Assembly (NCBI GenBank): GCA_016203205.1
Contig: JACQNE010000004.1
Coordinates: forward strand, 1-49,083
Origin: Candidatus Woesearchaeota archaeon
GTDB taxonomy: Archaea; Nanobdellota; Nanobdellia; Woesearchaeales; GW2011-AR9
Direction: 5' to 3'
Length of the DNA: 49,083 bases
A model generated the notes under the pieces. It searched no databases. It worked only from the letters and a program-made list of their open reading frames with translations, and was not told the DNA's origin. Both the position numbers and the translations under genes were made by a program. This document shows, in pieces, positions 9,362-49,009 of the stretch (position 1 is its first letter; every line of letters begins with the position of its first letter).

Positions 9362-9371
9362 GGAAATTACA

Positions 9372-13233: not shown

Positions 13234-13243
13234 CTTTCACTTC

Positions 13244-13639: not shown

Positions 13640-13703
13640 TTTCAGAGCAGATCAAAAACGTTGTTTAAAGAAGAAAAAAAAATAGAAAAAAAATAAACAG
13701 CGT

Positions 13704-16394: not shown

Positions 16395-18028
16395 GGTTCT
16401 TCCCTCGCTAGTTTGTTTTTATTGATTGATTTTTTGTCTGATTTTTGGTCTACTACTGCTTTTTCTGGTTTTTTTTGTTTCTCTTCGTTATTGAATTTTT
16501 CATTTTCTGTCTCTTCCTCTTTTGTGCGTTGTTCCACGCCGCGAAAAAGAAGGACAAGCATCCAGGTGATAAACGCAAGAATGATGACCATGCCGGTAAT
16601 CAGCAAGGCAGCAGCGATGTCATCGTTAGTATAAGGATCTTCCACGGTCTGGACAACAAGCGCTGTTTTTGCAGACGAAGTGGAAGCTTTATCTCCCACC
16701 TTATCTCCCCCTGCCGTTCCACCAGTCGCTAAACCTAATCCTTTTTCGGCCGCAGAAACTACAGTCTTGTCGAGAGTTTTTGCCGGCTCATTTTCTTCAG
16801 CTTTATTTTCTGCAGAAACTGGTTCGGGGAGAGTACATTTCTCTAATTTGAACGGGATAATCTGCCGATCACTGTCTTGATTTTTTCTGATCAGCAAAGT
16901 GACATCCAAGGGGTATGCGCCCGGCGGCAGATCCTTGGGGATGAGGAACGAAGTGGTAAAATCATAGCTATTGCCGCTTTTGCTGCTACGAGGAAGAGAA
17001 ATGTCCGGGATGTTTTCTTTTACTCCCAATTTTTGGTTGAAAATGATCAAGCCAACATTTTCCTGATCATTTGTCCCAAAATTCTTGATGATGAGGTGTA
17101 CACTCGCGCTCTGTTCGCACGCTGCTGTTGCCGGTGTTATTTCCGCCGTCGTTATCCGCACATCATCCCGAATTCTTTCTACGGAAAAAGTCAGTTCTTT
17201 CTTAACTTCGTGGAGAAGATTCTTTCCGTCTTCAGCACTCAACGTAATCTCAAAAACAAATTCGTCAGGATCAACTTCATCGTCGATCGTGAAGGTGATG
17301 ACCTTGCTGTCTTTCTTTTGGGCATCGAGGTCATCAAAAGTATAAATCTCATCAAACTCCCGGTCAACAAAAAGATCTAAATCATCTGGTTCAATCTCCA
17401 ATTCGAGATCAACTAATTCGGCATCATCCTGATCATAATCGCGGTCAAAGAGATTTTCGATGTCAAAGGTCATCTTCACTTCCGAACCAGGTTTAAGGCT
17501 ATTATCCAGCGTTAATTCTGCGTTTTTTTCGGTAGCAAATTGCTGGGTCTGGATTTTTCCGTTCTTATCTGTATATTCCACTTTTAGTTCAGAAAGGATG
17601 AGCATGGATTTGGTATTTTGCGTGAGCGTTTTGCTGGCTAATACTTGTTTCGTCAGCGCATCTTTGACGGTCAGCGTGCCGATCGGCGACTCGCCGGAAC
17701 CTTTCTTATGCGGCACTTTAACCGTAAATGAGATCGTTTTTGTTTCTCCTGCGGCAAGCGTCGCCGTCACTTCTCCAGCTTGATAATCGGTCGGAAGATT
17801 GCTCAATTCGATGCTGACCTGTGTGCTTTCAGTTCCATCATTAGCAAGATTTACCTTGCCGTTCACATCAATCTGCTTCTGTGATTCTTCCGTAAACTGG
17901 TTATAATCAACTTCGATGCTGACTTTTTCATCGGTGATCTGAACGGCTGCTGCCGCGCCGATTGTAGTGATTAGTATTAACAATAAAGTGATGGTCAGAT
18001 GCCTGAATACGGGGTTGAATGAAGCCAT
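16391..18028 (-). CDS. acidic CARDB-type surface protein with C-terminal TM anchor and Lys/Glu-rich tail (545 aa)
   Basis: Signal peptide, very acidic middle region, and a module (IIKNFGTNDQENV...PPGAYPLDVTLL) paralogous to the C-terminal module of the 896-aa protein. TM anchor is present. ATGA overlap with the downstream gene. Confidence 0.8.
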   Translation of the reverse strand: MASFNPVFRHLTITLLLILITTIGAAAAVQITDEKVSIEVDYNQFTEESQKQIDVNGKVNLANDGTESTQVSIELSNLPTDYQAGEVTATLAAGETKTISFTVKVPHKKGSGESPIGTLTVKDALTKQVLASKTLTQNTKSMLILSELKVEYTDKNGKIQTQQFATEKNAELTLDNSLKPGSEVKMTFDIENLFDRDYDQDDAELVDLELEIEPDDLDLFVDREFDEIYTFDDLDAQKKDSKVITFTIDDEVDPDEFVFEITLSAEDGKNLLHEVKKELTFSVERIRDDVRITTAEITPATAACEQSASVHLIIKNFGTNDQENVGLIIFNQKLGVKENIPDISLPRSSKSGNSYDFTTSFLIPKDLPPGAYPLDVTLLIRKNQDSDRQIIPFKLEKCTLPEPVSAENKAEENEPAKTLDKTVVSAAEKGLGLATGGTAGGDKVGDKASTSSAKTALVVQTVEDPYTNDDIAAALLITGMVIILAFITWMLVLLFRGVEQRTKEEETENEKFNNEEKQKKPEKAVVDQKSDKKSINKNKLAREEP

Positions 18029-18209
18029 AGTATTGTACCTATTCTGAAGTAGTATTCCGGTTTGGTCTATTTTGGAGTTTCTATTTAAATGTTGTGGTGT
18101 TTTGGGGGCTGGGGGCGGCAGGTTAATACTTCTTTGGAGTGATAAAAATAGGAAGATTAATAAACAAAATGGGGTTTTTCAAAAAATACACCAATAAAAT
18201 TACAACAAT

Positions 18210-26726: not shown

Positions 26727-27587
26727 ATGAAAACAACACCTACACAACTCTCCGTCTTTGAAGGTCAGCACATTCGTAAGATCTGGCATAATGACGAATG
26801 GTATTTTTCGGTCATTGACGTCGTTGGCGCTTTGACTGAAAGTAGTAATCCTCGAAATTATTGGAATATGCTCAAAACGCGTGAGGAAGAGCAAGGAATT
26901 GAACTGTACACAAATTGTGTACAATTAAAACTTTTAGCGGATGATGGTAAGATGAGAGAAACAGACTGTGCTAATACTGAAGCTCTTTTCCGTATAATTC
27001 AATCAATCCCTTCCAAGAAAGCAGAACCATTTAAGCTTTGGCTGGCCAAAGTAGGCTACGAACGTGTCCAAGAAATCGAAAATCCAGAATTGGCCCAACA
27101 GCGGATGAAAGAGATATACAAAGCTAAGGGCTATTCTGATAGTTGGATCGAGAAACGTGTGAGAGGAATTGCTATTCGGGATGAATTAACGGATCAATGG
27201 AAAAATCGTGGGACTCAAACCGAAAGAGAGTTTGCGATATTAACAGCTGAGATTTCTAAAGCAACATTTGGTATGACTCCCAATGAATACAAGGATTTCA
27301 AAAACTTAAAGAAAGAGAACTTACGAGACCACATGGATGATATGGAACTCGTTCTGACAATGCTTGGCGAAGCGACAACCACAAGATTAACCACAGAAAG
27401 AGATTCCCAGCAGTTTCCAGAACTAAAGAAAGATGCCAAAGACGGTGGTGATGTTGCCGGAAGCGCCAGAAAAGATATTGAACACAAGCTAGGTAAAAGT
27501 ATTGTTTCCGAAGATAATTTTCTCGAACAATCTGAGGAACAGAAAAGGATTGAACACGGCAAAGGCAAATTATCAAAATCTATATAA
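26727..27587 (+). CDS. BRO-N domain / DinD-like DNA-damage-inducible protein
   Basis: N-terminal LSVFEGQHIRKIWHNDEWYFSVIDVVGAL matches the BRO-N pattern. The central AEPFKLWLAKVGYERV...ELTDQWKNRG region resembles E. coli DinD-type proteins (from memory). Confidence 0.6.
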   Translation: MKTTPTQLSVFEGQHIRKIWHNDEWYFSVIDVVGALTESSNPRNYWNMLKTREEEQGIELYTNCVQLKLLADDGKMRETDCANTEALFRIIQSIPSKKAEPFKLWLAKVGYERVQEIENPELAQQRMKEIYKAKGYSDSWIEKRVRGIAIRDELTDQWKNRGTQTEREFAILTAEISKATFGMTPNEYKDFKNLKKENLRDHMDDMELVLTMLGEATTTRLTTERDSQQFPELKKDAKDGGDVAGSARKDIEHKLGKSIVSEDNFLEQSEEQKRIEHGKGKLSKSI

Positions 27588-35944: not shown

Positions 35945-37615
35945 ATGACCTATCGTTCCCTTGCAGAAGTAATCGTCCAGCAGCTTCCCATTCCACCGTT
36001 TACATATAGGTCTACTTCTTCAGGCATTGAGCAGTTAACTCGGTTCTACCTTCTGCCGATTGTTAACGACACCGTTGATGAAATCACACGCGGGATATTC
36101 TCCGTTCATGGCCAAGTTGGCACTAGTGCGTTCCTATTTTCCTATGATGATCGCCGGTATATCTGTCCTAAACAAGGCGGGCTGACCCTGCTTTCGATAC
36201 ATAATAAATACGATTTTCTTCAACTCCCTCTCCAGAAAACCGAGTTTACTATTAATCTTGAGAAAGATGGTAAGCCTCTTCCGGGTTCTCCTTTTCCAGT
36301 CATGGGTATCGCGGGTAGCTCCGGAATCTTACCATTAACTCTGATATCCAAAGTCCAGGAACGGTGGGAGTGTATACAAGGAATATATAAAGCAGAGAAT
36401 AACTTGTATTCTTGTTATCTTTCGAATGAAGCCGAAGAATTTGCCGCTTTTGTAGAAGAATTTCTGTCCAGAATGGATCAGCCATCGGCTGAGGCAAGTT
36501 CGATCTCATTGTCTTTTCCGGCAGTTCACACCTCTCGAAAGAGTGCTGTAGATCAAGAAGTGGATTGTACCGATCCGCAATCAGTTGTCCGTTATCTTGA
36601 CGATTATGTCATCGGCCAGGAAGAAGCCAAGAAAGATGTTGCCGTCGCTGTTTCCAGCTTAATGATGCGAAAAGCGACAGGTGACGAGACGCTTCCCAAG
36701 ATGAACACCATGCTCATCGGGCCGACAGGAGTAGGTAAGACATACATGATGAAAATTTTAGCAAGGAAAGCAGGAATCCCTTTTGCTTTCACCAAGCTCG
36801 TCGGCAGAAGTGCCGAAGGTTATTATGGACAGAATGTGTCCAAAGTCTTTGATCAAATCCATCTGCAAGCAAAAGGCAAGGAAGAAGATGAAGAAGCACC
36901 GTATGGCATCGTCTTTCTCGATGAAATTGATAAAATAGTCTACGGCGGGGTTGGCGGTAAATTTAGTTTTGGCGAACAGATGCAGAACGAACTGATCGGC
37001 TGGGTTGAAGAAGATCATCTTTCCCGAGCATTGGGCGAAGGAAATTCTAGAACTGCCTATCAGTTGAATACTAAAAATCTCTTATTCGTCGTTGCCGGAG
37101 CATTTCAGGGACGGGGAAAACAGCACGATGGTCTTTCCGAGATCATCGCCAGCCGTCTTGCCGGGGGCAGACAGATCGGGTTTGGCGCAGCACACCCGCA
37201 ACGCGCGGAGAAAGACTCGTTATTGCATCAAGTACAGCCGGAAGATTTGATGTCCTGGGGCTTCTTACCGGAATTGGTCGGCCGGTTTCCCGTCGTCTCC
37301 ACGCTGGATCGACTGACAGAAGAACAGCGTGTCCGGATCTTGACGGAAGCAAAGGATTCTACGTTGGCCGGCCACGTCCGTCTTCTGACCGCGCAAGGTT
37401 ATACTATTAAAGATCCTACCCTTCTGGCACAGCTGATCGTAAGCCGCTGTCCGGCGGAGACCGGAGCAAGAGGACTGGCCTCGGTTTGCAGCCAGCTCTT
37501 TCGGGACGTGCTCTTCGACCCTTCCGCTTTTGCCGATAATAACAAAAATATTTGTATCGACCGATTAACTGGTGCATTGCCGGCAAGCGCAGCTGTGGCT
37601 GTTAGTGAAATGTGA
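35945..37615 (+). CDS. ClpX-like AAA+ unfoldase with a novel ~215-aa N-terminal domain
   Basis: LDDYVIGQEEAKK, Walker A GPTGVGKT, pore loop EGYYGQNV (compare GYVG), Walker B IVFLDEIDKI, IGF loop GGRQIGFGA, sensor/arginine region LPELVGRFPVVSTLDRLTEEQ, and TGARGL. There is no C4 zinc-binding N-domain. Confidence 0.8.
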   Translation: MTYRSLAEVIVQQLPIPPFTYRSTSSGIEQLTRFYLLPIVNDTVDEITRGIFSVHGQVGTSAFLFSYDDRRYICPKQGGLTLLSIHNKYDFLQLPLQKTEFTINLEKDGKPLPGSPFPVMGIAGSSGILPLTLISKVQERWECIQGIYKAENNLYSCYLSNEAEEFAAFVEEFLSRMDQPSAEASSISLSFPAVHTSRKSAVDQEVDCTDPQSVVRYLDDYVIGQEEAKKDVAVAVSSLMMRKATGDETLPKMNTMLIGPTGVGKTYMMKILARKAGIPFAFTKLVGRSAEGYYGQNVSKVFDQIHLQAKGKEEDEEAPYGIVFLDEIDKIVYGGVGGKFSFGEQMQNELIGWVEEDHLSRALGEGNSRTAYQLNTKNLLFVVAGAFQGRGKQHDGLSEIIASRLAGGRQIGFGAAHPQRAEKDSLLHQVQPEDLMSWGFLPELVGRFPVVSTLDRLTEEQRVRILTEAKDSTLAGHVRLLTAQGYTIKDPTLLAQLIVSRCPAETGARGLASVCSQLFRDVLFDPSAFADNNKNICIDRLTGALPASAAVAVSEM

Positions 37616-37766
37616 TCCGGGCGGCGGTTCTTGACAGATTTCTTGCCGATATTTAGTATCAATAGTCTTTTGTTAAATGCAATCATTTCACTTCCAAGCA
37701 CTTCATTAAACCGGCAGCCCTCCTTGCTTTTTTTACTGGTATTCCCTCTCTCCATTCCAGCATAAT

Positions 37767-37776
37767 CTTTATATAC
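37767..37776 (+). promoter_or_regulatory. TATA box (CTTTATATAC) for the 37799-48499 operon
   Basis: About 27 nt upstream of the ATG at 37799. A T-run terminator-like tract (CTTTTTTTAC) lies just upstream. Confidence 0.55.
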
Positions 37777-37798: not shown

Positions 37799-39799
37799 AT
37801 GGAACAAAAGAGGAAGAGGTGTGCTATTTGTCGTTCTATCTCTCGGCTTTCCCCACAAAAACGCGGGCAAGTAACCTTGTTTATCATCATCGGCATCCTG
37901 CTTGTTCTTGCGCTGATCGTGGTTGTGTTTGTGCGCAAGGAATTGCTGACCACCACGCCTGATGAACTGATCACCACCGGCAAAGGGCCGGTAGCCGATT
38001 TTATTGCCATGTGCATCAAGCAATTGGGAGAAGAGGCTCTGCTTAAAGCAGGAGAACAGGGCGGGTATGTGACACTGCCGGCAGAAATTGCCCAGAATGG
38101 CTACGTTCACCTGAAGACCTCGCCTTTTACCGCCGTTCCCTATTGGGCTTACGGCACGACGCGGGCCGTGCCCTCGCTTCCGGCAATCAAATCTCAGATC
38201 GATGCCCACATCCGGCAGCATCTGCGCTCCTGTCTTTTTGATCAGGGCGCGTTCTCCGCAACGAATAACATCATTGAGAAAAGTGAGATCACGGCGGACA
38301 CGAATCTTGCCGAAAATAAAGTAATCTTTAATGTCCGCTGGGATCTGGAAGTTCAGACTAAAGCGGGTGAGAAAATTATCGATCTCCTGGACCACGCCGC
38401 AGAATCGCCGGTGAAGTTCAAGCGCCTGTACGATGCCGCCGTGCGGGTTATCGATGTTGAGCTGCGCGAGCTTAAACTGGAAGACATCACTCAGGACTTG
38501 ATCGCCTTAGAGCATCCCAACGTGCCTGTCGTCGGCTTTGAATTATCCTGCTCACCCAAACAATGGGACGTGGAAACGGTACAACAGACCGTGCGAGATC
38601 TGCTGCGGGTGAATATCGGCCAGCTGCGTGTGCGGGGGACGGATGTCGTTGAATTCCCTGACGAGCTGCCTTATTACCAGAATCATTATGTCTGGGATCT
38701 CGGCGCTGATTTTGCACCCAAGAATGTGGTCATCGATTTCCATTACGATAATAGTTATCCCTTCACGTTTGACGTCCGGCCGCGCAGTGGAAGTACATTA
38801 AAAAGCGCAGCGCTGGCCGCCGGTTCCAATCCGCTGCTTTCTGCATTCTGCGCCCAAAGCTGGAAATTCACCTACGATGTAAGCTATCCGGTTTTGGTTA
38901 CGCTGCGTGACGCGACGACGGGCTACACATTTAAAACTGCCCTGACTGTGCATCTGCAGAAGAACATCCCCAATCGGGAAGAGATCATCCCCGCAGTCGC
39001 ACCACCTTTTATCACTGAAACGTATTCCGACCAGCAATTTTGCGCCACGCGGAATGTGCCGCTGCTGATCACGACCAGCGAGGCAGTTGATAACGGAAAA
39101 GATGTTTCATTCAGCGAGCCGTTAGCTGGCGTGAATATTACCTATAACTGTCTTCAGTATCAGTGTTCTCTCGGCCAGACTGAATATGACTATGCCGGCA
39201 TGGGCGACGTGGCGGCATATCAATTTACCGTTCCTTATTGCGCCAATGCGGTTATCCGCGCCGATAAAGACGGTTATGCAGACGGCTGGACAAATCTGGT
39301 CGCCAAACCAGGCGCGCGTGCTGACATTCAATTGATCCCGACTCTTGCTTTTCCGGCGGCGAATATTTCGCTGGTAAAACATTATCTCAGCGGTGATGCC
39401 CAGTTTAGCGCCGGCATCGCGCTGGCGAAAGACGAGACAACGATCATCAAGCTCAGTTCAGTCCAAAAAGACGTGCGGACAAATCTTCCTGTAGTAGAAA
39501 GCACGGTCGTTCTTTCCTCTGATCTTTCCGAAGATGTCCTGCAAAACCAGCCGCTGAAACTGCTGGCCAAAGCCGATTTCATGTATAATGTTGATATTGC
39601 CGTCTTGAACGGCGAACGCTTCAGCGCCGGCTACAAAGCTAACTGGACTGCATCCTGGCAGGAATTGGAACACGCCCAGCGCCTGACGTTTCATGTTGTC
39701 GGACAGCAAAGCGCATCTGATGCTGACACATTTGGGTTGTATGCCGAATTGGCGGAAAGAAGCGCGGCATTGCCCTTGCCTGAGCTGCATGAAAAGTAA
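37799..39799 (+). CDS. large extracellular protein with class III (pilin-type) signal-like N-terminus (666 aa)
   Basis: A 22-aa basic leader ends in KRGQ, followed by VTLFIIIGILLVLALIVVVFV. The ectodomain has no recognised catalytic motif. Confidence 0.75.
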   Translation: MEQKRKRCAICRSISRLSPQKRGQVTLFIIIGILLVLALIVVVFVRKELLTTTPDELITTGKGPVADFIAMCIKQLGEEALLKAGEQGGYVTLPAEIAQNGYVHLKTSPFTAVPYWAYGTTRAVPSLPAIKSQIDAHIRQHLRSCLFDQGAFSATNNIIEKSEITADTNLAENKVIFNVRWDLEVQTKAGEKIIDLLDHAAESPVKFKRLYDAAVRVIDVELRELKLEDITQDLIALEHPNVPVVGFELSCSPKQWDVETVQQTVRDLLRVNIGQLRVRGTDVVEFPDELPYYQNHYVWDLGADFAPKNVVIDFHYDNSYPFTFDVRPRSGSTLKSAALAAGSNPLLSAFCAQSWKFTYDVSYPVLVTLRDATTGYTFKTALTVHLQKNIPNREEIIPAVAPPFITETYSDQQFCATRNVPLLITTSEAVDNGKDVSFSEPLAGVNITYNCLQYQCSLGQTEYDYAGMGDVAAYQFTVPYCANAVIRADKDGYADGWTNLVAKPGARADIQLIPTLAFPAANISLVKHYLSGDAQFSAGIALAKDETTIIKLSSVQKDVRTNLPVVESTVVLSSDLSEDVLQNQPLKLLAKADFMYNVDIAVLNGERFSAGYKANWTASWQELEHAQRLTFHVVGQQSASDADTFGLYAELAERSAALPLPELHEK

Positions 39800-39813
39800 G
39801 TAAAAAAAAGCAA

Positions 39814-42800
39814 GTGAAAAGAAAAACCAGTGAAAAGAGCAAGTACAAAAAAATAAGTGAGAAAGAGATGGTGAGAAACAATACGATAACTCCTGTGAAC
39901 AGAAAAAAGAAGCAGAACTTTCTCCGCGCCCAAGCGCTATTTGTAATCATGCTCTTTGTCCTTCTTCCGGCGGCTGCCGCTCTGGAAATTTCCGCTGTTT
40001 CGGCGCAGCCCGTGACCTCGACGGGAGCGACGATCAGCTGGACGACTGACGAGCCGGCAGATTCGTTTGTCCATTATGGTACTGATGCGGCCTCATTGAA
40101 GACGGCCGGCGATGCCAAAGCGACGACAAGCCATTCTTTGCAGATCAGCGGCTTGGCGGCAGAAACAAAATATCTTTATTCCGTGGAAAGCCAGGGGGTT
40201 GTTGATGATAATGGCGGGTCTTTGTATTCATTTGAAACGCCGGCGCCGGACACTGCCGCGCCGGCATTAAAAGTTGAATTTCCCGCAAAAGTTGCCGGGA
40301 CGCGCGGGACATTTTCGGGAGAAACAGAAATTGGCGTACAGGTGACGCTGATCCTTAACGGCAAAAAAAGTGGAACTGTGACGGCAGAACCAAGTACGGT
40401 CGATGCCAAGAAAGGATTTTTTACATTCAGTGAAATCATTCTGCAGGAAAATGCCGCAAATACGTTGCTTGTGGAAGCCGTTGATGCCGCCGGCAACAAA
40501 GCGGCAGCTTCCGGAAGCGTCTTTGCCGACGCGAAAAAACCGACGGTAGACGTAAAAAGCATCCCCGCTTTTGTTACGGAAAATTCTTACAAATTAATGC
40601 TGACTGTTTCCGAAGCGGTAAAATATGAAATTTTTGTCAATAACAAATCCGTTTCCAAAGGCGAAGGAGCAAAGATCGATGTGTCTGTGCCGCTGCAGGA
40701 AGGGCAGAATAAGATTGTGCTAAAATTGACGGATGATGCCGGCTGGGTGACTGAAGAAGAAATCACCATCGAAGCCAGCGCCAAGCCGCCGATGATCAAA
40801 GCAGAGATCGAGCGCGGAAAGGAATTCTATGAAGGCCGGGCCACTTCGCCGATCAGCGGGACGACCAGTCCGGGCGCCAAAGTCTATCTCTACGTCTACA
40901 AACCGCAGTTGAATGAATATACACCATCATTTGACCGGCCGCGTCAGACCGTGACGGCCAATGAGAAAGGAGAATTCCGCTTTGCTGATATTTCGTTTAC
41001 TTCTTCCATCGCTGATATCTCACTGGAAAAAGTGGTGCCCAAAGAAATCCCTGCGGACTTGGTGAAGATCAAGATCTTTCCCCTTGGCGAAGGCGTGCAG
41101 CAGCAGACGTATTATGTCTATCTCATCGCTGAGGATAAAGCGGGGAGAAGCGCTTCCTGGCAGCAGCAAGTCTTGATCCAAAGCTGTTTCTCGGGAAATC
41201 TGGACTTTTCGATCGAATCTGTCCCGGAATTTCAGGCGCCGCTGCGTCTTGTTCCCCAGCTCGTCGATCAGGGCAGACAGGACGTGCAGGCAGTATTCAA
41301 GCTGAATTATAACGGCTTGGGCGTGCCCGTCAGAACAGCGGATGGAAAAATCATCGAGCAAGGCGTGCGCGTGACCAATGTCCAGATCGGAGAGGCCTGT
41401 ACGACGGGGATGGCGAAAGATGAGAAATTCAGCCTCGGCTGCAGTCTGCTGCCGAGCCGGCCGACGCGTTCGCTGCCGAATCCCGATCAATCAGCAGTCT
41501 ATGCCAGCTGGACGCTGCATCAGGGAGAAGAACTGAGCGCTGCCAAAGAGAGTTTCTGGAACGAATTTAAAAATCGGCAGGTCGTTTTCCCATTAAAGAT
41601 CCAGGTAAGTTATCAGGAAGTAGAAAGCCGTGATGCGGCAGGAAATGCGGTGTATGGAAAAGCAAAGATCCAGAACAGCTGTACGGACTTAAGTTATTTT
41701 GTGGACATTCCGCTGGATAGCAAGGACATGATCCCCGATTTTCTCGCCGACGAAGGCGTTGATGCGTTGAATTGGACAATCACCCAGATCAATGTTGTTA
41801 CGCCGTACATTGAGAAAGCATACTTAATCACGGGAATTACGGGCATGGCCGCGTTCCTGTTGCGGACAGTCGCGCGCTGGGTGCGCATCTTCGCCACAAA
41901 GCTGGAACAGTATTATTCTATCCTGAACAAGAATGAAACTGGCTGTCGTAATCCAGAACAATACTATCTTGATGATACTTTGAAAGATTGGAAAGAAGCC
42001 GGTGTGGCCAACGGCCCGGATCCTTTGCTGGGTGCGCTCAAGAGCGAACAGGGAAGCGAGGCATGGAATGCTGTTTCTCTCGACAAGCGCTGTCCTTCCA
42101 CGGCGAGCGCCTGGAAATTTGAGGCGATCATGGATCAGGCCTACAAATGGAGTTGGGATCGCGCGTTCTGCCGCGCCGTACCCGCACGCTGGACGGAGGA
42201 TAAGAAGCAAAGTGAAATTGCCTTGCGCGTGGCGGACCAGCAGCAATGCGCTGTGACGGGAAGCGGTGTGCCTTTGGAACTGATTGAAAATTGCAAAGAA
42301 TTTATCTCCAAGAACAAGATCCTTCTCGACACCGGGATCGATCAAGACACGCTGAGCCTCTGCTGGCGGACAAAAGATTCTGACCTGTATGTACGGACGC
42401 CGCAGGTTGATCTAACAACAGCAGAACAGGGAGACCAGGCCAAAGGATTTTATTACCTAACCCATATCGGCAATACCTACACGGTTGCGTCTTCGGCATT
42501 GATCACCTACGGTCCGCGGCTGAAAGTGTACAAACCGCAGGGCGCGCAGACTTTTTTCGTAGCGAAAGATCAGACCTGCACGGCTACGTGCAACAACCCG
42601 CAGAAGCCGGGCTATCAGGCAGACCGCACGTTAGGGAATGCAAATGGCTGTTACGATCAGAAAGGGGGGCTGTTTTATGACGGGTTCGGCGATCCCCTTC
42701 TTCAAGGCCGTTATGCTGCCGGCTACACTAAAGATTGTTTCATCAAAGATGATAATCAGAAAAACATCCTGCGTGATGCTGCCGGCAATCCGCAGCTGCA

Positions 42801-45699
42801 GCAATGCGTCTGCATGCCGGATACGACGCCGAAGAAAATTGCCGACGGGGGAGGAATGCGTGTCGCTCAGGAAAAGAACAAAGATACGGGTGTGGTGGAA
42901 TCCTGGTCATATCAGCAAGACCGGATGTATCAGGAAACGGGCGGCGGGCAAGGAACGTTTTACCCAGCGGAACGTTATTCTGGCGGACGCGATCTCTCCG
43001 GCGCGTTCGGCGCAAATTATCTTCTGGATTATGCGCGTGCAGAAGAAAAAGAGCCAAAAATTAATCCAAATACTCAGATCATCGGCACATTCCAGACCGT
43101 CTGTCTTTCAGGGATCTTGAAGAACTTGAAATTGTTGCAAAGCATGTTAGCGGGCGTGCAGGCCTGTTTAGTGGAAGCAAAATATACCGGTTTGCATGAT
43201 GCGGGGATGTGCAAAACACTGTTTACGCAGCAGGTCTGCGGACTGCTGTATCAAGGAATTGCTTTCCTGGCGAGCAGCAACAGCTGTATGCCGCTGGATT
43301 TCAATTCCGTCGGCAAGGAAGGGCCGATCGCCGATGCCGGAACAATCATCTCCGGCGGTTTCAGCGCAATGACTCAAGCTTTAGATACATCGTTTGAAGA
43401 TGCGCGTAATGAATACGGCAATGCCGCGCTCAATCAATACTTTAAAGGCGGGACGCAGGGTTTTGCCCAATCAATCTGCCTGGCTGCCTTTGGCTATGAC
43501 TTCCCACTGTTCAGCGAAGATTTCCTGCTTGATGCAGCGTATGCTTTTCCGACGAAAACCTTTCCAGTCATCGCGCCGGCGAGCCGGGAATTAAGCAGCT
43601 ATGACCCGACGAAGCAGATGGCCATCTTTAATTATAATATTGGCGGGGCAATCTTTCCCGGTTGTAAAGTCAAAACAGCGACGGTAAAATTGAAATGCAT
43701 CGGTCCGGGCGATCGGGGAAATCCCAACGTGGATGAGTCCTGCGGCGGACAAGGCTGCGACTGCCTGAATGTTCCCGGAACGGGAGCCGCGTTTGAAGCG
43801 CAGAAAGAGCAGCAGCTGGGAACTTGGTTTAATCTGCCGCCGGCGCAGATGTTCTCCATTCCGTTGGAATCGCCGCAGCACGTTACCGCACCATACCGTT
43901 ATGATCATGTCGTCGTGGAATTATTCTTAGATCCGAGCGAGAAGGATAATTATGATAAATGCGTGGAAAGCGAATTCCTGCAGGGGAATAAAGCGGTCTT
44001 TTATTATCCGTTGAGTGATGTTTCTCCGCCGAGCGCGTTGGCGTGTACTGTTGATCTGACGACGGGGCGTTACCAGTGTCCTGAATTGTATTCGCTCTTT
44101 GGCTATGGCGGCGCGTTTTTAGAAGATCCATACGTCTCTTGTTGGAACAAGAAAACTGAGACCTGGATGTCCTGCGATACACCCAACTTGTTTGTCATCG
44201 GCGATGAGATCAAAGTGCGGGCGCACGTGAATACGGATGGAAAAGGACAGTGCTTGAAACGAACGGTGAATCCATTAGTTCCGGGTATATTGGCCGAAGC
44301 GCCGCCGCGCCAGATCGTGCAGAATGTGCAGGGTGCGCAATACGTGAGTGATACTTTGGGGATTGTGCAGGCCGGCATGTTCGGCGGCAGTACACCGATC
44401 ATCACTTTAGCGAAAGAAGAAAGCGGCCTGAATTGCGGCCCGATCACACAGGATTTGACACCAACGGCGTTGACATCCGGTGAAAAAGTAACCTTTGGCT
44501 TTGATGCCGGCAGTTTGCCTAATACTGTTCGGTTGATTGTGCCGGCGACAGTAAATATTAACACGCCCGGTTACAGCCGCAGCGGGAATTATTTAGCGAA
44601 GGGCAGCGTGGTCGATCTGGCTGTTCAGGAGATAAATCTGGTGCAATTCAGCGCGCTTGGCTTTACGTTCCGCAATGTCTTGGGCGGGGTTAATCCGACG
44701 GATCAAAAGAGACAGTGCGTCTATCAGATCATCGAACAGAATGTGTATTCGCAGGGCGTGAACAGCCGCGACTTTACCGTGACGTATCAATTATTGGAGA
44801 AAGATGAAGCCGGCGGCTGCTATCTGGCCAATCAGCCGGTAAAAACATCATTGGGCAAGGCGACGCACGGACAGAAAATCACCATCCAGAAAGAAGAAAC
44901 TGCCGTCAGCGGCTTGCAGCAGAGCTTTGCTACGGGCAATTATCAACAGACTTTGGACTATGCGGTCATCGTCTTGAATCAGCGGCGCGGCGATATGGAA
45001 AATGCGCTGGCCTATTATTATTATATCGCCAGTTTTGTGATGCTGGGCAAGAACAATCCTGCGCAGTTTGAAGGGCAGATCAAAGAGGCGCTGAGTGGAT
45101 TCTTCAATCGGAAATGGGCAGAGCAAGATGCACAGCCGTATCCTGCCGATGTTGCGGCAATTACGGAATATCAGAAGATCAGGAAATATCTTTGTGAAGT
45201 TGACGGGAAGTATGGTTCGGTGAATGCGGGGATGTGTGGGGGAGGTGCAGTATCACCTTCGTCTAGTTCTAGCGCTACCTGCGAAGGAAAAGGTTTCACG
45301 ATCGACATTGGTGATGGTTTCTTGCACAGATGTCTCAGTACGACGCGGGCAGAAGGCTGTCGTCCATCTACCGGCTTGCCCACGAATGAGTATGATATTA
45401 GTAAAGTGCCGACTCCAGCACACAAACAAAAATTAGAAGAGGCTTGTAAAGAAGGTGCGACGGGAGGTACGTTCACAGCGACGGTTACTTTGCCGGATTC
45501 CTCAAATAAATGTTCTTCTGGGGATTATCCAATCAATGATCTTCCTGGTGATAACGCGCCTTATGCGTTTCGATGCGATGGTCAAACTAAAGCGTATTCC
45601 TGCACGAAATCAACGGGCGATACATCTCCCGGCTCAGGCCCTCAGCCATTTACGATCCCCGCATCTTCCGCTGATCTGTTAGCGAGGTGTAAGTCTTGA
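39814..45699 (+). CDS. giant cysteine-rich surface protein (1961 aa) with N-terminal FN3/Ig-like domains
   Basis: Uninterrupted 5.9 kb ORF. Leader ..KKKQNFLRAQ-ALFVIMLFVLLP. FN3-like SAQPVTSTGATISWTTDEPADSFVHYG...YLYSV. Ig-like repeats are followed by an internal hydrophobic segment and a very Cys-rich 1250-aa C-terminal part. The start is the GTG at 39814 or the ATG at 39868. Confidence 0.85.
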   Translation: MKRKTSEKSKYKKISEKEMVRNNTITPVNRKKKQNFLRAQALFVIMLFVLLPAAAALEISAVSAQPVTSTGATISWTTDEPADSFVHYGTDAASLKTAGDAKATTSHSLQISGLAAETKYLYSVESQGVVDDNGGSLYSFETPAPDTAAPALKVEFPAKVAGTRGTFSGETEIGVQVTLILNGKKSGTVTAEPSTVDAKKGFFTFSEIILQENAANTLLVEAVDAAGNKAAASGSVFADAKKPTVDVKSIPAFVTENSYKLMLTVSEAVKYEIFVNNKSVSKGEGAKIDVSVPLQEGQNKIVLKLTDDAGWVTEEEITIEASAKPPMIKAEIERGKEFYEGRATSPISGTTSPGAKVYLYVYKPQLNEYTPSFDRPRQTVTANEKGEFRFADISFTSSIADISLEKVVPKEIPADLVKIKIFPLGEGVQQQTYYVYLIAEDKAGRSASWQQQVLIQSCFSGNLDFSIESVPEFQAPLRLVPQLVDQGRQDVQAVFKLNYNGLGVPVRTADGKIIEQGVRVTNVQIGEACTTGMAKDEKFSLGCSLLPSRPTRSLPNPDQSAVYASWTLHQGEELSAAKESFWNEFKNRQVVFPLKIQVSYQEVESRDAAGNAVYGKAKIQNSCTDLSYFVDIPLDSKDMIPDFLADEGVDALNWTITQINVVTPYIEKAYLITGITGMAAFLLRTVARWVRIFATKLEQYYSILNKNETGCRNPEQYYLDDTLKDWKEAGVANGPDPLLGALKSEQGSEAWNAVSLDKRCPSTASAWKFEAIMDQAYKWSWDRAFCRAVPARWTEDKKQSEIALRVADQQQCAVTGSGVPLELIENCKEFISKNKILLDTGIDQDTLSLCWRTKDSDLYVRTPQVDLTTAEQGDQAKGFYYLTHIGNTYTVASSALITYGPRLKVYKPQGAQTFFVAKDQTCTATCNNPQKPGYQADRTLGNANGCYDQKGGLFYDGFGDPLLQGRYAAGYTKDCFIKDDNQKNILRDAAGNPQLQQCVCMPDTTPKKIADGGGMRVAQEKNKDTGVVESWSYQQDRMYQETGGGQGTFYPAERYSGGRDLSGAFGANYLLDYARAEEKEPKINPNTQIIGTFQTVCLSGILKNLKLLQSMLAGVQACLVEAKYTGLHDAGMCKTLFTQQVCGLLYQGIAFLASSNSCMPLDFNSVGKEGPIADAGTIISGGFSAMTQALDTSFEDARNEYGNAALNQYFKGGTQGFAQSICLAAFGYDFPLFSEDFLLDAAYAFPTKTFPVIAPASRELSSYDPTKQMAIFNYNIGGAIFPGCKVKTATVKLKCIGPGDRGNPNVDESCGGQGCDCLNVPGTGAAFEAQKEQQLGTWFNLPPAQMFSIPLESPQHVTAPYRYDHVVVELFLDPSEKDNYDKCVESEFLQGNKAVFYYPLSDVSPPSALACTVDLTTGRYQCPELYSLFGYGGAFLEDPYVSCWNKKTETWMSCDTPNLFVIGDEIKVRAHVNTDGKGQCLKRTVNPLVPGILAEAPPRQIVQNVQGAQYVSDTLGIVQAGMFGGSTPIITLAKEESGLNCGPITQDLTPTALTSGEKVTFGFDAGSLPNTVRLIVPATVNINTPGYSRSGNYLAKGSVVDLAVQEINLVQFSALGFTFRNVLGGVNPTDQKRQCVYQIIEQNVYSQGVNSRDFTVTYQLLEKDEAGGCYLANQPVKTSLGKATHGQKITIQKEETAVSGLQQSFATGNYQQTLDYAVIVLNQRRGDMENALAYYYYIASFVMLGKNNPAQFEGQIKEALSGFFNRKWAEQDAQPYPADVAAITEYQKIRKYLCEVDGKYGSVNAGMCGGGAVSPSSSSSATCEGKGFTIDIGDGFLHRCLSTTRAEGCRPSTGLPTNEYDISKVPTPAHKQKLEEACKEGATGGTFTATVTLPDSSNKCSSGDYPINDLPGDNAPYAFRCDGQTKAYSCTKSTGDTSPGSGPQPFTIPASSADLLARCKS

Positions 45700-46265
45700 T
45701 GAACACAAAAGGAACAGGCGTCATTGAACTGATCATCTTTTTGATCATCGTCGTCGTAATCAGCGCGACCGTATTATTATTGATTAAATTTAATGTAGTG
45801 GAAGTAAAAGAGGACGGTGCGCAGGAGCCGGTCTTAAATGTCGAGTTTATCCCATATGCCCGCGAAGGAGTACTTGTCGTGAAAGAGTTCTCGTTCTGCC
45901 GTTCGGTTGATGAAGCGTATGATTGTCTTGGTGCGGGAAATCAGTTTGTTTTTGGCCAGCCCGTCTATTATCGTTTTGGCGTGGAGAGCAGCACGTATCA
46001 AGGGCAGATTAAAGTGGTGAAAAATTATCGCATCAAAGGGCCGTCAGGAGAAGTTTTATTAGACGTGGGAACAGATCAGCAGTCTCAATTTGATTCTGTA
46101 AGCAATAATGTTCAAGAAGTTGTTTTGTTCAAAGATTATTTTGTCGTTCCGGCGGGATTTCCGGCCGGAGAATATACGTTTGAATTGGTGGTAGAGAATC
46201 CATTGTTGACGAAACAGGCAACATTGATACAGAGGTTTGTTATTGGTAGTGGGGTGGAAGGATGA
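45699..46265 (+). CDS. type IV pilin-like protein (188 aa)
   Basis: The N-terminus MNTKG-TGVIELIIFLIIVVVISATVLLLI has a short basic leader, a Gly at the putative cleavage site, Glu at +5 and a hydrophobic helix. The ATG overlaps the upstream TGA by 1 nt (the ORF track lists the TTG at 45696). Confidence 0.7.
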   Translation: MNTKGTGVIELIIFLIIVVVISATVLLLIKFNVVEVKEDGAQEPVLNVEFIPYAREGVLVVKEFSFCRSVDEAYDCLGAGNQFVFGQPVYYRFGVESSTYQGQIKVVKNYRIKGPSGEVLLDVGTDQQSQFDSVSNNVQEVVLFKDYFVVPAGFPAGEYTFELVVENPLLTKQATLIQRFVIGSGVEG

Positions 46266-48499
46266 GGAAAGAACGATTGTTTTTGCTGTTTGTGCTGGTA
46301 GTGTTGGGTTCTTCGATGGTGTTGGGGTCTAAACATTCGTATGGGCTTATTGATGAAATCCCCTCCTCTTGGGTAATAGAGAAAAAATTGAATGGCCCGG
46401 TAAACAGCGGAGAATTTCCGATTAAATGTTCTGGTGGAATTTGTGGTGCCCTTCAATGGGAATCGGGGTCTAATATCCATACCCTCTATTCCACGACTTT
46501 AAATAAGAAGAAAATATATATCGGTGTTGGGGGGGGCGGTAGTGGAGCAAAGTATCTTACGGTTACTTTTGATGATAATTATGAACAAATTGGGCTGGTT
46601 GTTCAAAGCCCTTCTGATTTAGCTATAACCTCTGATGTAAAAACAATTAAACTCAACTTTTTTTTTATTATAGGGGGCACTACAGAGAGGGAGGGAAATG
46701 CTAAAAAATATGGCTCTTGGACGTTTGAAGACCTCTATGTAGCGGGAGGTAAGTATAATCTATATCCTCGCATCCAAGTGATATATAATGATCATGCAAT
46801 AGTCTGCCAAAAATTAGGACATATTGTATTCCTGGGTGACGGTTATTGGCATAAATGCCTGAGTGCAACAGAAGCACAAGGCTGTGATCCCAAAACTGGA
46901 TTACCGATAAATAAATATGTAATCTCAAAGGTTAAAAATTCTGAACATAAAGAATCTCTGCAGCAAATATGTCCTAGATCTTATGCCGCCACTGTTCCCG
47001 GCAGCAGCAGTGTCTGCAAATACAAATCAATCGCCATCATCGGCGCTTCCAATACGGTTAAGCAGAATGGGAACAGTTTTGGTGAATTGATTGAAAAAAG
47101 TTGTCCGGAGTCTAAAGTCTATATCTTGGCTGCAAGTGGCGCTACGCCGACAAAGCAGAAAGAGTTGCAACTTCCTGTTGCGTTATCTTTAAACCCAGAT
47201 CTCTTGATCATCGATCCTTCGGCAAACGGTATTACTGATATAGCTTATTATAACTCGGTCAAAGCCATGACTGTAGCAGCAAAAGCGTCTGACTCTAACA
47301 TGCAAGTCGTGGTCATGACCATCTCCCCCCATAAAAATTATGATTATGGCGGCGGCGCTCAATGGAATCAGAAAATTCAGAATGAGATTGAGATTTTTAA
47401 TGATGATCTTGTCCTACATAAACTATCGACAGAAAACATTAATCAAGCCGTGAATACCTATCCCACACTGGGCAGCCCTAGTGATAAAGATGTCTGCGGC
47501 TTTTGCAAATCAGATCTGGGGCATTTAAACGCAGAAGGACATAAACGTGTCGCCGCGCAAATCTTAAAAGAAGTGTTTGGACTAATTGTTGATATATCGT
47601 CTTGGGCTGGGGGGGGCAGTGGCGGCATCCAAGTTGGTACGGCATCTGCGGCACAGCAGATCCAGCAGAACTGCCAGATCGAGCAGCGCTGTAAAGATAT
47701 TGATTCGGCGTGGGTGACGTTCAGCGGTGTGTTAGGCTTGCGTTCCGGAGAAGTCTGGGTGCCGCCGCTGAAAGCATGGAGAACATTTGCGGATGTGTAT
47801 AATCCGAAAGCGGTGGCTGCTCCGGCCGCAGTCAGTTCTCCGGGGAGTGGAAAAAGCGGCGCGGGTATTGTTGAATGTGCAACTGCAGATGCGAGCATGA
47901 CAAATGAACAAAAAGCTTTCTTGGATACAATTGCCTATGCTGAAGGAACGACCAATTGCGGGATAAAGCATGGTGTTTCCAGCTATAATATCCTCGTTGG
48001 ATGTACTGTGTTCACGGATCTTTCGAACCACCCCAATAGTCTTGTTTCGACGGGGGATGTAAAATCAAAAGCTGCCGGAAGATACCAAAATCTCCACGTT
48101 TCTCAGTTTGGTCCAGGTAAGAAATATCCCGATTTCCAACCCGCCACACAAGACAGAGCTGCATTGGATTTAGCAACAAGTGAAGGCAGCATATCTCAGA
48201 GTTCTTTTGCCTTAAGCCCAAACTGGGAAGTTATCTGGAACAGTGCAGCAAAAACGTGGGCGGCAATTAGTTATACCCAGACTATCTCCCCGGATAGTAA
48301 CTGGCATAAGAATAATAAAAAAGTTAATGGTGGTGTTGTTGATTCTTCCTGTGGCAATGGAAACAGTTATTATTGTCAAGGCAGCGGCGTTAACCATGCG
48401 ACATTGACCAAAGTATATAATCTCTGTTTGAAAAACTACCAAAGTGGCGGCGCGAAAGGCACACGGTTCAAATTATCCAGCGGTGAAAAAATATCATAA
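46262..48499 (+). CDS. secreted multidomain hydrolase: N-domain + SGNH esterase + lambda-R-like (GH104) lytic transglycosylase (745 aa)
   Basis: Signal peptide MRKERLFLLFVLVVLGSSMVLGS. SGNH blocks IAIIGASNT, ..GATP.., DPSANGI and DLGHLNAEGH (nt about 47030-47580). A Gly-rich linker follows. The C-terminal QKAFLDTIAYAEGT..YNILVG..FTDLSNHP..AAGRYQ..DFQPATQDRAAL (nt 47897-48290) closely parallels phage lambda endolysin R. Confidence 0.8.
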   Translation: MRKERLFLLFVLVVLGSSMVLGSKHSYGLIDEIPSSWVIEKKLNGPVNSGEFPIKCSGGICGALQWESGSNIHTLYSTTLNKKKIYIGVGGGGSGAKYLTVTFDDNYEQIGLVVQSPSDLAITSDVKTIKLNFFFIIGGTTEREGNAKKYGSWTFEDLYVAGGKYNLYPRIQVIYNDHAIVCQKLGHIVFLGDGYWHKCLSATEAQGCDPKTGLPINKYVISKVKNSEHKESLQQICPRSYAATVPGSSSVCKYKSIAIIGASNTVKQNGNSFGELIEKSCPESKVYILAASGATPTKQKELQLPVALSLNPDLLIIDPSANGITDIAYYNSVKAMTVAAKASDSNMQVVVMTISPHKNYDYGGGAQWNQKIQNEIEIFNDDLVLHKLSTENINQAVNTYPTLGSPSDKDVCGFCKSDLGHLNAEGHKRVAAQILKEVFGLIVDISSWAGGGSGGIQVGTASAAQQIQQNCQIEQRCKDIDSAWVTFSGVLGLRSGEVWVPPLKAWRTFADVYNPKAVAAPAAVSSPGSGKSGAGIVECATADASMTNEQKAFLDTIAYAEGTTNCGIKHGVSSYNILVGCTVFTDLSNHPNSLVSTGDVKSKAAGRYQNLHVSQFGPGKKYPDFQPATQDRAALDLATSEGSISQSSFALSPNWEVIWNSAAKTWAAISYTQTISPDSNWHKNNKKVNGGVVDSSCGNGNSYYCQGSGVNHATLTKVYNLCLKNYQSGGAKGTRFKLSSGEKIS

Positions 48500-48568: not shown

Positions 48569-49009
48569 TCATTTCCTAAATAAAATTAATTTGATAATAT
48601 CATCCAAAGATACACCTATTTCTATGCCACTTTTACAAAGTTCTTTTATTTCTTCATCAGAAACTTCTTTTCCGTCATAAATGTTTATGTGTCCAAGTTG
48701 TCTATTACGTTTGTTGTTAAAATTTGATAATTTGTTTTTAAGTGGTTCATCTATAATCCCTGTAATGAATAAATCTCTAAGAATTTGAGCAAAAGATTTA
48801 TCTTCAATAATTTTCCATTTTTCTTTATGATTGCCGAAAGGCTTACCATTTTCATCTTTATCAAATTTATAACGGAGAATTATGCGTAACTGGTGGTGTA
48901 TACCTGCATGAATTGTCGCAAAAGCTTTCCAAATATTTGTTTCTATAAGATTATTAAAGTAATTTAAGGACAATTTATTTCCAGTATAAAGTAATTCTTT
49001 TTTGCTCAT
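48569..49009 (-). CDS. hypothetical protein with possible HEPN-like Rx5H motif (146 aa)
   Basis: Intact ORF in a strongly AT-rich segment. It is predicted all-helical, and NKRNRQLGH fits Rx4-6H. Confidence 0.45.
   Translation of the reverse strand: MSKKELLYTGNKLSLNYFNNLIETNIWKAFATIHAGIHHQLRIILRYKFDKDENGKPFGNHKEKWKIIEDKSFAQILRDLFITGIIDEPLKNKLSNFNNKRNRQLGHINIYDGKEVSDEEIKELCKSGIEIGVSLDDIIKLILFRK

Follow-up and report, generated by a model that had tools for sequence, protein, structure and literature searches.

A conserved four-gene cluster of Woesearchaeota links predicted lineage-specific surface proteins with exchangeable murein hydrolase genes

Giant extracellular proteins with lytic transglycosylase (LT) domains, reaching ~3,000 amino acids (aa), have been reported from Woesearchaeota and Pacearchaeota (fam00969; Castelle 2021, PMC8204110), together with GH23 proteins (Vigneron et al. 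2022, PMC9723730), and both papers propose a role in binding or degrading the bacterial walls of hosts or prey. Archaeal peptidoglycan hydrolases have also been shown to be bactericidal: Woldo and Danwoldo of Halogranum salarium are secreted, modular enzymes directed at bacteria, and such hydrolases are described as prominent and diverse in Nanoarchaeota (PMC12352652). The present analysis concerns four genes, named g1 to g4, located at positions 37799-48499 of a 49,083-nucleotide (nt) stretch of DNA from a Candidatus Woesearchaeota archaeon (assembly GCA_016203205.1, contig JACQNE010000004.1), which is referred to as the window. Comparison with related loci revealed that the fourth gene occupies a fixed position at which non-homologous murein hydrolases replace one another, behind large proteins specific to the lineage. 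The cluster is read here, with modest confidence, as encoding a surface scaffold by which an exchangeable murein-lytic enzyme is kept on the outside of the archaeal cell in order to open or digest bacterial walls. Its features are the following:

37761-37775, + strand: promoter, a CATAATC resembling the transcription factor B recognition element (BRE), then the TATA box TTTATATA, read from the sequence and from a block conserved among relatives.
37799-39799, + strand: g1, an open reading frame (ORF) of 666 aa, with a basic leader, the motif K-R-G-Q-V-T-L-F-I-I-I-G, a hydrophobic helix (aa 24-50), a novel alpha/beta region (aa ~63-400) and immunoglobulin (Ig)-like beta-sandwiches (aa ~420-660); a large family specific to the lineage is founded on it.
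39814-45699, + strand: g2, an ORF of 1961 aa with a GTG start.
39814-45242, + strand: conserved part of g2 (aa 1-1810 of 1961).
45243-45698, + strand: variable C-terminal tail of g2 (aa 1811-1961), behind the point (45242) where colinearity with the related locus L008 stops.
45699-46265, + strand: g3, an ORF of 188 aa counted from ATG (a TTG also stands at 45696), with an anchored N-terminus and a beta-rich domain of ~140 aa that contains two invariant Cys; its start codon is shared in part with the stop codon of g2, and its stop codon with the start of g4.
46262-48499, + strand: g4, an ORF of 745 aa, composed of a Sec signal (aa 1-~22), an N-domain of no known kind (aa ~26-180), a four-Cys module (aa 181-238), an SGNH-like esterase (aa ~255-440), a Cys/Trp module (core aa 468-517) and a lambda-R-type LT (aa ~540-745).
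47616-47823, + strand: signature or "adaptor" module inside g4 (the Cys/Trp module, core aa 468-517, ~50 aa), an island conserved in the comparison with L008, both flanks being unrelated.

The cluster shares with the giant LT proteins (i) the lineages, (ii) the extracellular location, (iii) a murein-cleaving domain and (iv) the proposed role. However, those are described as single SLT proteins, whereas here the giant g2 and the hydrolase g4 are separate, coupled genes of one operon. In contrast to fam00969 as described, the g2 of the window has no LT domain, and the protein that does carry one, g4, measures 745 aa and is of the lambda R type rather than SLT. Woldo and Danwoldo differ in another way: they are stand-alone, Tat-secreted proteins with peptidoglycan-binding domains, and have neither a conserved operon partner nor a signature module. 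The part of g4 that is related to the lambda R endolysin is just one domain of a secreted multidomain protein, and neither a holin nor a lysis cassette accompanies it. The initial annotation of the window, which knew of no described system with this architecture, was right with respect to the operon, which appears undescribed; large extracellular LT proteins and their proposed role had been published (PMC8204110, PMC9723730), and so had the hydrolase diversity (PMC12352652). In open-access papers and preprints no description was found of the four-gene operon, of the g1, g2-core and g3 families, of their class-III-type termini, of the signature module, or of an exchange of cassettes at a fixed locus.

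The order g1 (~665 aa), g2 (~1800-2300 aa), g3 (~185 aa) and g4 recurs in dozens of genomes of Woesearchaeota and Nanoarchaeota, and in metagenome-assembled genomes (MAGs) of Woesearchaeota it occupies one and the same place on the chromosome. Since homologues exist for each of the four products and their arrangement is found again elsewhere, the array is not due to chance, and the synteny on which the initial interpretation depended is conserved among relatives. Of the relatives that bear a name, Candidatus Woesearchaeota RIFCSPLOWO2_01_FULL_44_20 is the closest (g1 identity 91%). For g1, more than 251 full-length homologues with 41-91% identity were identified, all named "hypothetical" and all from Woesearchaeota or Nanoarchaeota. 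A profile search of 1.84 billion cluster representatives (50% identity clusters) returned 6,827 clusters at E<=1e-3 and 938 at E<=1e-30, and relatives of g1 are present in at least 378 genomes when one genome per GTDB species is scanned. The giant g2 has ~50 full-length homologues in the same lineages (34-76% identity over ~90% of the length); outside them only its N-terminal fibronectin type III (FN3) region has matches.

For a closer comparison 80 loci, roughly 1.5 Mb in all, were fetched. In practically all of those that are long enough, g1 is followed by a g2-like giant, and an ORF of the g3 family follows g2 in 41 of the 51 loci that extend at least 2.5 kb beyond g2. Divergence is greatest in the ten loci that lack g3 (26-32% g1 identity), which suggests that g1 and g2 are the ancestral pair and that g3 and g4 are an addition in the clade of the window. 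Many records carrying this Woesearchaeota-specific operon (L019, L021, L023 and others) are titled "uncultured Methanosarcinales archaeon", which looks like a mislabelling of MAGs.

Among 5.8 billion proteins only six are similar to g4 along the greater part of the sequence, yet a gene occupies the same place almost everywhere. The domains at this place, position 4, were assigned by means of Pfam on 45 proteins, scans of each protein, and local hidden Markov models (HMMs) built from family members. The murein-active domains identified at position 4 or 5 comprise SLT, lambda-type LT, Phage_lysozyme2, glucosaminidase, Hydrolase_2, Amidase_2, Peptidase_M15_4, Peptidase_M23 and CE4 deacetylase, and the accessory domains at position 4 are SGNH, EEP, metallophosphoesterase, lipase and FGE-sulfatase-like domains, with DUF2272 of uncertain standing. 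A recognised murein-active domain is present at position 4 or 5 in 40 of 46 distinct loci, three of the 40 on weak matches, and one further locus has DUF2272 only. Throughout the fetched loci such domains lie only at position 4 or 5, or fused to one g2. That non-homologous peptidoglycan hydrolases stand in for one another at a fixed position argues strongly that this slot is under selection for murein cleavage, and the murein-directed role suggested by the initial annotation is thereby strengthened. The combination of glycosidase, amidase or peptidase with an esterase or deacetylase resembles modular phage lysins.

Further observations concern the same position. FGE-sulfatase-like domains occur in 11 of the 45 position-4 proteins (loci L016-L057), often together with DUF2272 or phage-lysozyme domains. 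A fifth gene with a further murein hydrolase (SLT or M15), sometimes with a signature module of its own, is found in L054 (16205-17743), L058 (20299-21852), L048 (20166-20969) and L079 (19849-21606). In L079, L068 and L010 an enolase gene lies beside or inside the array.

The catalytic part of the window's own g4 is well defined. Residues 546-644 match residues 4-105 of lambda lysozyme (1AM7/3D3D, E 5e-13) and the endolysin family PHROG_90 (E 3.5e-16), and the endolysins of 606 phage records are related to this domain at 29-42% identity. The sequence AYAEGT (558-563) aligns to AWSEGT of lambda R, which contains the catalytic Glu19, and is kept in the homologues P0002-P0006; the domain at aa ~26-180 is common to the homologue P0004. 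In the SGNH-like region, block I is represented by GASN at 261-264 (Ser263) and block V by DLGH at 418-421 (Asp418/His421), blocks II and III not being clearly identified, and homologous position-4 proteins reach 58-64 bits for SGNH. The initial assignment of g4 as a secreted SGNH esterase fused to a lambda-R-type transglycosylase is supported, its SGNH part by a sub-threshold Pfam match and the residues of blocks I and V. At position 4 of other genomes, SGNH domains are found together with transglycosylases of two unrelated types, lambda and SLT.

The four-Cys module of g4 (nt 46802-46975) has a counterpart at the end of g2, where aa 1822-1880 (~58 aa, nt 45277-45453) are 45% identical to g4 aa 182-252 (E 5e-17). 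The same module ends g4 in L001 and L004 and g2 in L006 and L021, and a PDB search with it returned no relative. We guess that it might be a common target-binding module.

The most direct view of the exchange is given by the locus L008, which shares ~85% DNA identity with the window. The two are colinear from the AAA gene upstream of the operon through g1 and g2 to position 45242. Colinearity returns for g3 and the first 30 nt of g4 (45699-46293), and thereafter only for 47616-47823, at 87.5% nt identity. The rest of g4 and the tail of g2 are unrelated, the g4 of L008 being composed of an alpha/beta-hydrolase-like domain and an M15 peptidase. The GC content at third codon positions (GC3) inside g4 (46295-48499) changes at these same recombination breakpoints: from 0.38 in the N-terminal cargo it rises to 0.60 across the signature module and falls back to 0.39 in the C-terminal cargo, compared to 0.57 in g1 and g2. 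Thus, a constant part is kept while the catalytic domains differ between close relatives, as in a polymorphic locus. The likeness to polymorphic effector and toxin loci extends to the constant N-terminal part with an internal module, around which catalytic domains are exchanged. Unlike those loci, the cluster has no dedicated secretion ATPase, its g1-g3 are unrelated to known delivery systems, and no cognate immunity gene lies next to the cassette (downstream there is bPH_2/Fpg or an unrelated 146-aa ORF); none would be expected in a producer without murein.

The conserved island within g4 corresponds to the signature module, with the pattern C-x4-R-C-x-[DE]-I-D-x-[AV]-W ... V-W-[VD] ... W. 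An HMM of the module recognises 46 ORFs, all at position 4 or 5 of the cluster and with any catalytic domain, and none elsewhere in the fetched loci. Among 51 loci, g3 and the module are both present in 33, g3 only in eight, and neither in ten; the module without g3 was seen in none. A PDB search of the module gave no meaningful match, a designed Kelch protein at E 1e-3 being judged spurious. Most simply, the module would be the constant link of a variable enzyme to its constant partners, docking to g3 or to a complex of g1-g3.

A physical link between the giant and murein-lytic function is provided by the locus L086. Its g2 orthologue (11480-18142, 2,220 aa; 25% identity over 1,437 aa, E 2e-89) ends in an SLT domain that has both canonical motifs, Glu and GLMQ (QKETGG...GLMQIMP), detected by a local HMM at 2.7e-7 and resembling EmtA (6GI4, E 0.008). 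Neither g3 nor g4 nor a signature module is present at this locus. The fusion can be regarded as a Rosetta-stone case that connects g2 itself to the enzyme. This protein looks like one of the LT proteins of Castelle and Vigneron.

The same observations bear on the view that there is no apparatus at all, and that g1-g3 are envelope proteins (S-layer-like or adhesins) while g4 is a free secreted bacteriolysin or a scavenger of necromass, merely co-regulated with them. Large archaeal envelope proteins have precedents in the large-plus-anchor S-layer pairs of the SlaA/SlaB type and in the tetrabrachion-protease complex. The g4 product has its own Sec signal and no anchor, the presence of g1-g2 without g3 and g4 in a distant clade means that the scaffold has a function of its own, and bacteria-killing peptidoglycan hydrolases that archaea secrete in free form have been described (PMC12352652). 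However, the ATGA coupling of g3 and g4 is conserved despite the turnover of the cassette, the position-specific module is retained through the domain swaps, and the fusion of g2 with SLT exists. A weaker point is that g2, with 46 Cys and an N-glycosylation sequon density of 0.2 per 100 aa, a low value, is unlike typical archaeal S-layer glycoproteins. We regard this view as rather unlikely, though deserving of attention.

A second alternative holds that the enzymes are directed at the wall of the archaeon itself, as an autolysin or remodeller of a polymer similar to murein or pseudomurein. A part in wall remodelling would agree equally with the tight linkage to envelope proteins. In contrast, cassette turnover between genomes of 85% identity is unlike housekeeping autolysins, and no mur-type synthesis genes were found in the window. 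Lytic transglycosylases, MurNAc-L-Ala amidase, D-Ala-D-Ala M15 peptidases and M23 peptidases are specific for bonds of bacterial murein. These lineages are treated as murein-less in the literature (PMC8204110). Self-directed activity is thus very improbable, and the target is taken to be the bacterial sacculus, because archaea make no murein.

On the reading of a surface scaffold with an exchangeable enzyme, the following sequence of events may be proposed. The g1 protein, N-terminally anchored and with a class-III-type motif, and g2, a disulfide-rich protein of ~200 kDa secreted through Sec, would constitute the ancestral extracellular scaffold or adhesin. The clade of the window would have gained a second pair, namely the small, pilin-like anchored g3 and the translationally coupled, secreted, modular g4. 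In the latter an accessory esterase, deacetylase or phosphoesterase domain would come first, then the Cys/Trp module docking to g1-g3, and the murein-cleaving domain last. Lytic transglycosylases need a free C6-OH on N-acetylmuramic acid (MurNAc), and bacteria shield this group by O-acetylation (Ape/Pat systems). Since O-acetylation blocks the C6-OH, the esterase would prepare the substrate for the transglycosylase, in line with the pairing of SGNH domains with both types of transglycosylase in other genomes: the SGNH domain would strip O-acetyl groups from MurNAc, and the lambda-R-type LT would then cut the bond between MurNAc and N-acetylglucosamine with formation of 1,6-anhydroMurNAc. Held by the scaffold, the enzyme could act locally on a bacterial wall for attachment, feeding or killing. 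Recombination on both sides of the signature module would exchange the catalytic cassettes, presumably tracking different bacterial wall chemistries.

Several points weigh against this proposal. The scaffold role is deduced from gene order and localisation signals, and the models of g1 and the g2 core gave no informative structural relative; the complex is thus a putative one. Five of the 46 position-4 products have no murein-active domain, although three of these are truncated at the end of the locus. The match of g4 to SGNH (PF13472, E 6e-4) reaches 20.7 bits against a gathering score of 32.9 and is thus sub-threshold, and O-acetyl groups of murein as the esterase substrate are a guess from the O-acetyl-peptidoglycan esterases of the Ape type. 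The co-occurrence of g3 and the signature module is largely a single clade-level gain and therefore not independent evidence. Moreover, the module usually lies directly N-terminal to the murein-cleaving domain and could be a substrate-binding or regulatory part of the enzyme. A cohesin/dockerin-like pairing of g2 and g4 through the four-Cys module was considered and, as a simple model, rejected, as L004 has the module only in g4 and L006 only in g2.

The structure of the scaffold proteins was analysed in silico. All four products possess N-terminal signals or anchors and no further transmembrane (TM) segment, from which it follows that g1 and g3 are N-terminally anchored or processed, while g2 is soluble and secreted. 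The AlphaFold2 (AF2) model of g1 (mean pLDDT 84) consists of an N-terminal helix (aa 23-50), a low-confidence break behind it, the alpha/beta region and the C-terminal beta-sandwiches. In g2, Pfam recognises only an N-terminal FN3/Ig stalk (aa 64-321), and a PDB profile search of g2 likewise matched nothing but this Ig region, as Bap-like (E 3e-4). The core that follows (aa ~330-1810) is of a novel kind and rich in disulfides, ~40 of its Cys being invariant or nearly so; many of the 46 Cys of g2 and the 18 of g4 are invariant. The AF2 model of g2 aa 630-1815 (pLDDT 77.5) shows a 63-residue helix (aa 642-704), helical bundles and many sandwiches. Neither g1, nor g3, nor the g2 core matches a Pfam, PHROG or NCBIfam family. 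Foldseek of the g1 and g2-core models against PDB yielded generic matches to Ig/FN3 arrays (integrin legs, arrestin, phage tail Ig; TMq<=0.14), from which no inference was drawn; the g2-core model, compared with PDB and the viral models of BFVD, found generic sandwiches only (TMq<=0.09), and a PDB sequence-profile search of g1 found nothing beyond Ig/FN3. By these predictions, g1, the g2 core and g3 would be lineage-specific extracellular proteins of no assigned overall fold.

The initial annotation had ascribed pilin-like N-termini to three of the products, and this stands for g1 and g3, which have a conserved class-III-like motif, but not for g2, where the site is not conserved. The combination of a short basic leader, Gly or Ala at -1 and, directly behind it, a hydrophobic stretch of ~20 residues is found in g1 and g3, not in g2. 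The consensus of 52 g1 sequences is K-K-G-Q-V-T-I-F-I-I-L-G, with Q24, T26, F28, I30 and G32 invariant; position -1 is Gly, or Ala in L004, the invariant Gln is at +1, and +5 is occupied by Phe instead of Glu. The g3 protein starts with M-N-T-K-G-T-G-V-I-E followed by a hydrophobic helix, with Glu at +5 in the bacterial style. Its distant orthologues keep the arrangement K-[GA]-x-hydrophobic-x-hydrophobic-[E/Q] (KGTGVIE, KGRIEIE, KAKIAME, KGGLLVQ), in which +1 is variable and Glu or Gln stands at +5 in most cases. As a class III substrate g2 was rejected: position -1 is A, M, V or I in its orthologues, and the conserved [AS]-x-A|L-E-I, in the window a hydrophobic region ending AAA|LEI, is an ordinary Sec-type signal.

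These N-termini are the basis of a third alternative, which is the tip of a type-IV-pilus-like fibre. In it g1 and g3 would be prepilin substrates cleaved by a peptidase of the EppA/PibD type, with the assembly machinery encoded elsewhere; g1 would be a "modular" large minor pilin, g2 a Sec-exported PilY1-like tip adhesin, and g4 a secreted partner carried on the fibre or set free by it, like CofJ or TcpF of type IVb pili. The pilin idea of the initial annotation is thereby given a specific form. The layout is a known one, since the bacterial operon fimU-pilVWXY1 combines minor pilins with a big non-pilin adhesin. In Methanococcus maripaludis the EppA-dependent pilins EpdB, EpdC and EpdE are processed at KGQV or KGQI and require Gln at +1 (PMC4371748, Table 1), and Glu at +5 is noted for EppA substrates as well (PMC4371748). 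The K-[KR]-G-Q-V-T of g1 is the same as the processed site of EpdB and EpdC, its Gln+1 and Thr+3 are invariant in the 52 homologues, and in many homologues only 2-5 residues precede the motif. The Glu or Gln at +5 behind K-[GA] in g3 persists across distant orthologues, a charged residue being hard to explain in a plain anchor, and the best PDB match of the g3 profile is the N-terminus of an archaeal pilin-like "flagellin", although non-significant (E 0.27).

On the other hand, the likeness to Epd pilins is divided, g1 being without Glu+5 and g3 without Gln+1, and g2 is clearly of the Sec type. No pilin or flagellin HMM (N_methyl, Class_III_signal, archaeal flagellin/pilin) matched at E<=10 in ten N-terminal segments including g1 and g3, the hits being TM noise only; the model of g1 has no pilin-like Foldseek match and a break after the helix, and it is not a canonical pilin. 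Pilus ATPase, platform protein and prepilin peptidase are absent among the ORFs of the window, which encodes no polytopic membrane protein at all, and none was found among the Pfam-annotated neighbours of ten related loci; the domain scan thereby bore out what the initial annotation had said of the window. As a plausible alternative, both anchors could pair in the membrane as a g1-g3 TM heterodimer, by way of the buried Glu/Gln in g3 and the Gln/Thr in g1. In g1 a likeness to subunits of the Sulfolobus bindosome can be seen, as it is a large, non-filament-like protein with a pilin-type signal, but assembly genes are not nearby here. The modules fimU-pilVWXY1, CofB-CofJ, TcpB-TcpF and S. sanguinis PilB (PMC8179133) belong to another domain of life and are alike only in organisation, in that they combine pilin-like proteins (one of them large and modular) with a big Sec-exported non-pilin protein and a partner that is secreted; to such bacterial minor-pilin/tip-adhesin modules the cluster showed no homology in sequence or structure. 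At the level of motifs the case for class III signals on g1 and g3 appears good, while membership in a pilin family is not established. A pilus tip is in our estimation doubtful, and the surface scaffold with its exchangeable enzyme is retained as the preferred reading.

The expression signals support a single transcription unit. One TATA box, TTTATATA at 37768-37775, precedes four tightly packed genes of the + strand, as had been noted initially, and the ATG of g1 follows 23 nt downstream. When seven orthologous loci were aligned, the most distant with a g1 identity of ~43%, the block CAYAAnCTTTATAWA proved invariant, as did its spacing from the ATG, whereas the surrounding DNA did not. The block may be understood as the phylogenetic footprint of an archaeal BRE/TATA promoter, and a transcript that is leaderless, or nearly so, is probable. 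The junctions are those given by the initial annotation, namely a 14-nt spacer between g1 and g2, TGATG between g2 and g3, and ATGA between g3 and g4. The ATGA overlap is retained in 19 of 37 loci although the content of g4 changes, and in several more the distance is <=2 nt. Together with the conserved promoter, this supports the proposed co-transcription and translational coupling. For g2 an alternative start exists at ATG 39868, and the gene call in the protein collection has 1943 aa. The spacer would then be 68 nt with no TATA-like element inside, an arrangement still compatible with co-transcription. A scan of the window with Rfam gave no match.

The chromosomal setting is archaeal. Among the genes of the window are those for TFB, GatD, PAC2, TYW3 and KsgA, for a subunit of the proteasome and for a tRNA methyltransferase of the GCD14 type. 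In independent MAGs the neighbourhood is conserved as PAC2 and/or an AAA ATPase, the four genes, bPH_2 and Fpg, and farther on GrpE-DnaK-DnaJ; these MAGs include Woesearchaeota contigs of 1.47 Mb (GCA_016188115.1) and 1.56 Mb (JBAYIU010000001). A bacterial or viral chimera was excluded because of the archaeal flanking genes and the synteny recurring in independent MAGs, and the locus belongs to a genuine archaeal chromosome, as the initial interpretation presupposed. The cluster could also be imagined as foreign DNA, either such a chimera or a prophage lysis cassette with g4 as the endolysin for virus release. The catalytic domain of the phage-endolysin type, the GC3 of the g4 cargo, which differs from that of g1 and g2, and a BRO-N protein 10 kb upstream could be cited in its favour. 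Against this stand the flanking TFB, GatD, PAC2, KsgA and TYW3, the neighbourhood from PAC2 through the operon to bPH_2/Fpg and GrpE/DnaK in many MAGs, and the lack of holin, capsid or integrase genes; moreover, an archaeal virus would not need a murein hydrolase for its exit. A foreign origin of this kind is scarcely credible.

Some further genes of the window were recorded as well. Directly upstream of the operon lies a gene for an AAA_2/ClpX-like ATPase with an N-terminal region of ~200 aa of no known kind (35945-37615, + strand); it has the same place in L004 and L008, and between PAC2 and g1 it is absent in L006 and L009-L011. Downstream there is a 146-aa ORF without Pfam match (48569-49009, - strand), 74 nt beyond which the window ends; in relatives its place is held by a bPH_2 protein and Fpg. 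The gene of the BRO-N domain protein (26727-27587, + strand), a domain typical of viruses and mobile elements, adjoins GatD on the upstream side. A nucleotidyltransferase (Polbeta/MNT) and HepT-like RNase pair at 2893-3713 (+ strand) is a type VII toxin-antitoxin module.

Two further sets of putative surface proteins were noticed. The first, a second putative surface operon at 3783-10298 (+ strand), has three products: a Cys-rich protein of 1376 aa (34 Cys) that carries a TM helix at its N-terminus, one of 483 aa that is anchored by its N-terminal end, and one of 308 aa in which a signal peptide is combined with a C-terminal TM segment. None of them has a Pfam match or BLAST similarity to g1-g4. 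The second consists of two overlapping genes at 13704-18028 (- strand) for secreted proteins of 896 and 545 aa with C-terminal TM anchors; there is only a weak NPCBM_assoc match, and the anchoring style differs from that of g1 and g3. Paralogy of the cluster with other surface operons of the window was rejected, as no BLAST similarity was found.

Taken as a whole, the initial interpretation is partly supported, and the four-gene array itself is confirmed. To our knowledge, the hosts and the lifestyle of the Woesearchaeota, which are among the most diverse and widespread groups of DPANN, have not been described, and all DPANN archaea cultivated so far live on other archaea. The locus, fixed in position and with a conserved promoter, ties three lineage-defining surface proteins to ever-changing murein hydrolases. 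A published hint, consisting of transglycosylases and speculation about hosts, thus becomes a defined and testable genetic module, and the findings support the published idea that these tiny archaea attach to or attack bacteria. The cluster offers candidate structural proteins for cryo-electron tomography, a module for docking tests, and enzymes for assays on sacculi of co-occurring bacteria. Two large protein families without known fold, that of g1 with its 6,827 clusters at 50% identity and that of the g2 core, are worth solving.

A correlation between the specificities of the polymorphic cassette and the wall chemotypes of bacteria could serve for the prediction of hosts. A bolder form of the preferred reading, which we put forward only tentatively and think less probable, is a dedicated, contact-dependent wall-breaching organelle common to Woesearchaeales, an order with thousands of uncultivated lineages, in which the scaffold of g1-g2 and the pilin-like g3 would present an exchangeable lytic "warhead" whose repertoire encodes the hosts or prey that can be exploited. 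If such an organelle exists, the cluster would provide direct genomic evidence for widespread episymbiosis or predation of archaea on bacteria, and a marker for the prediction of their hosts.

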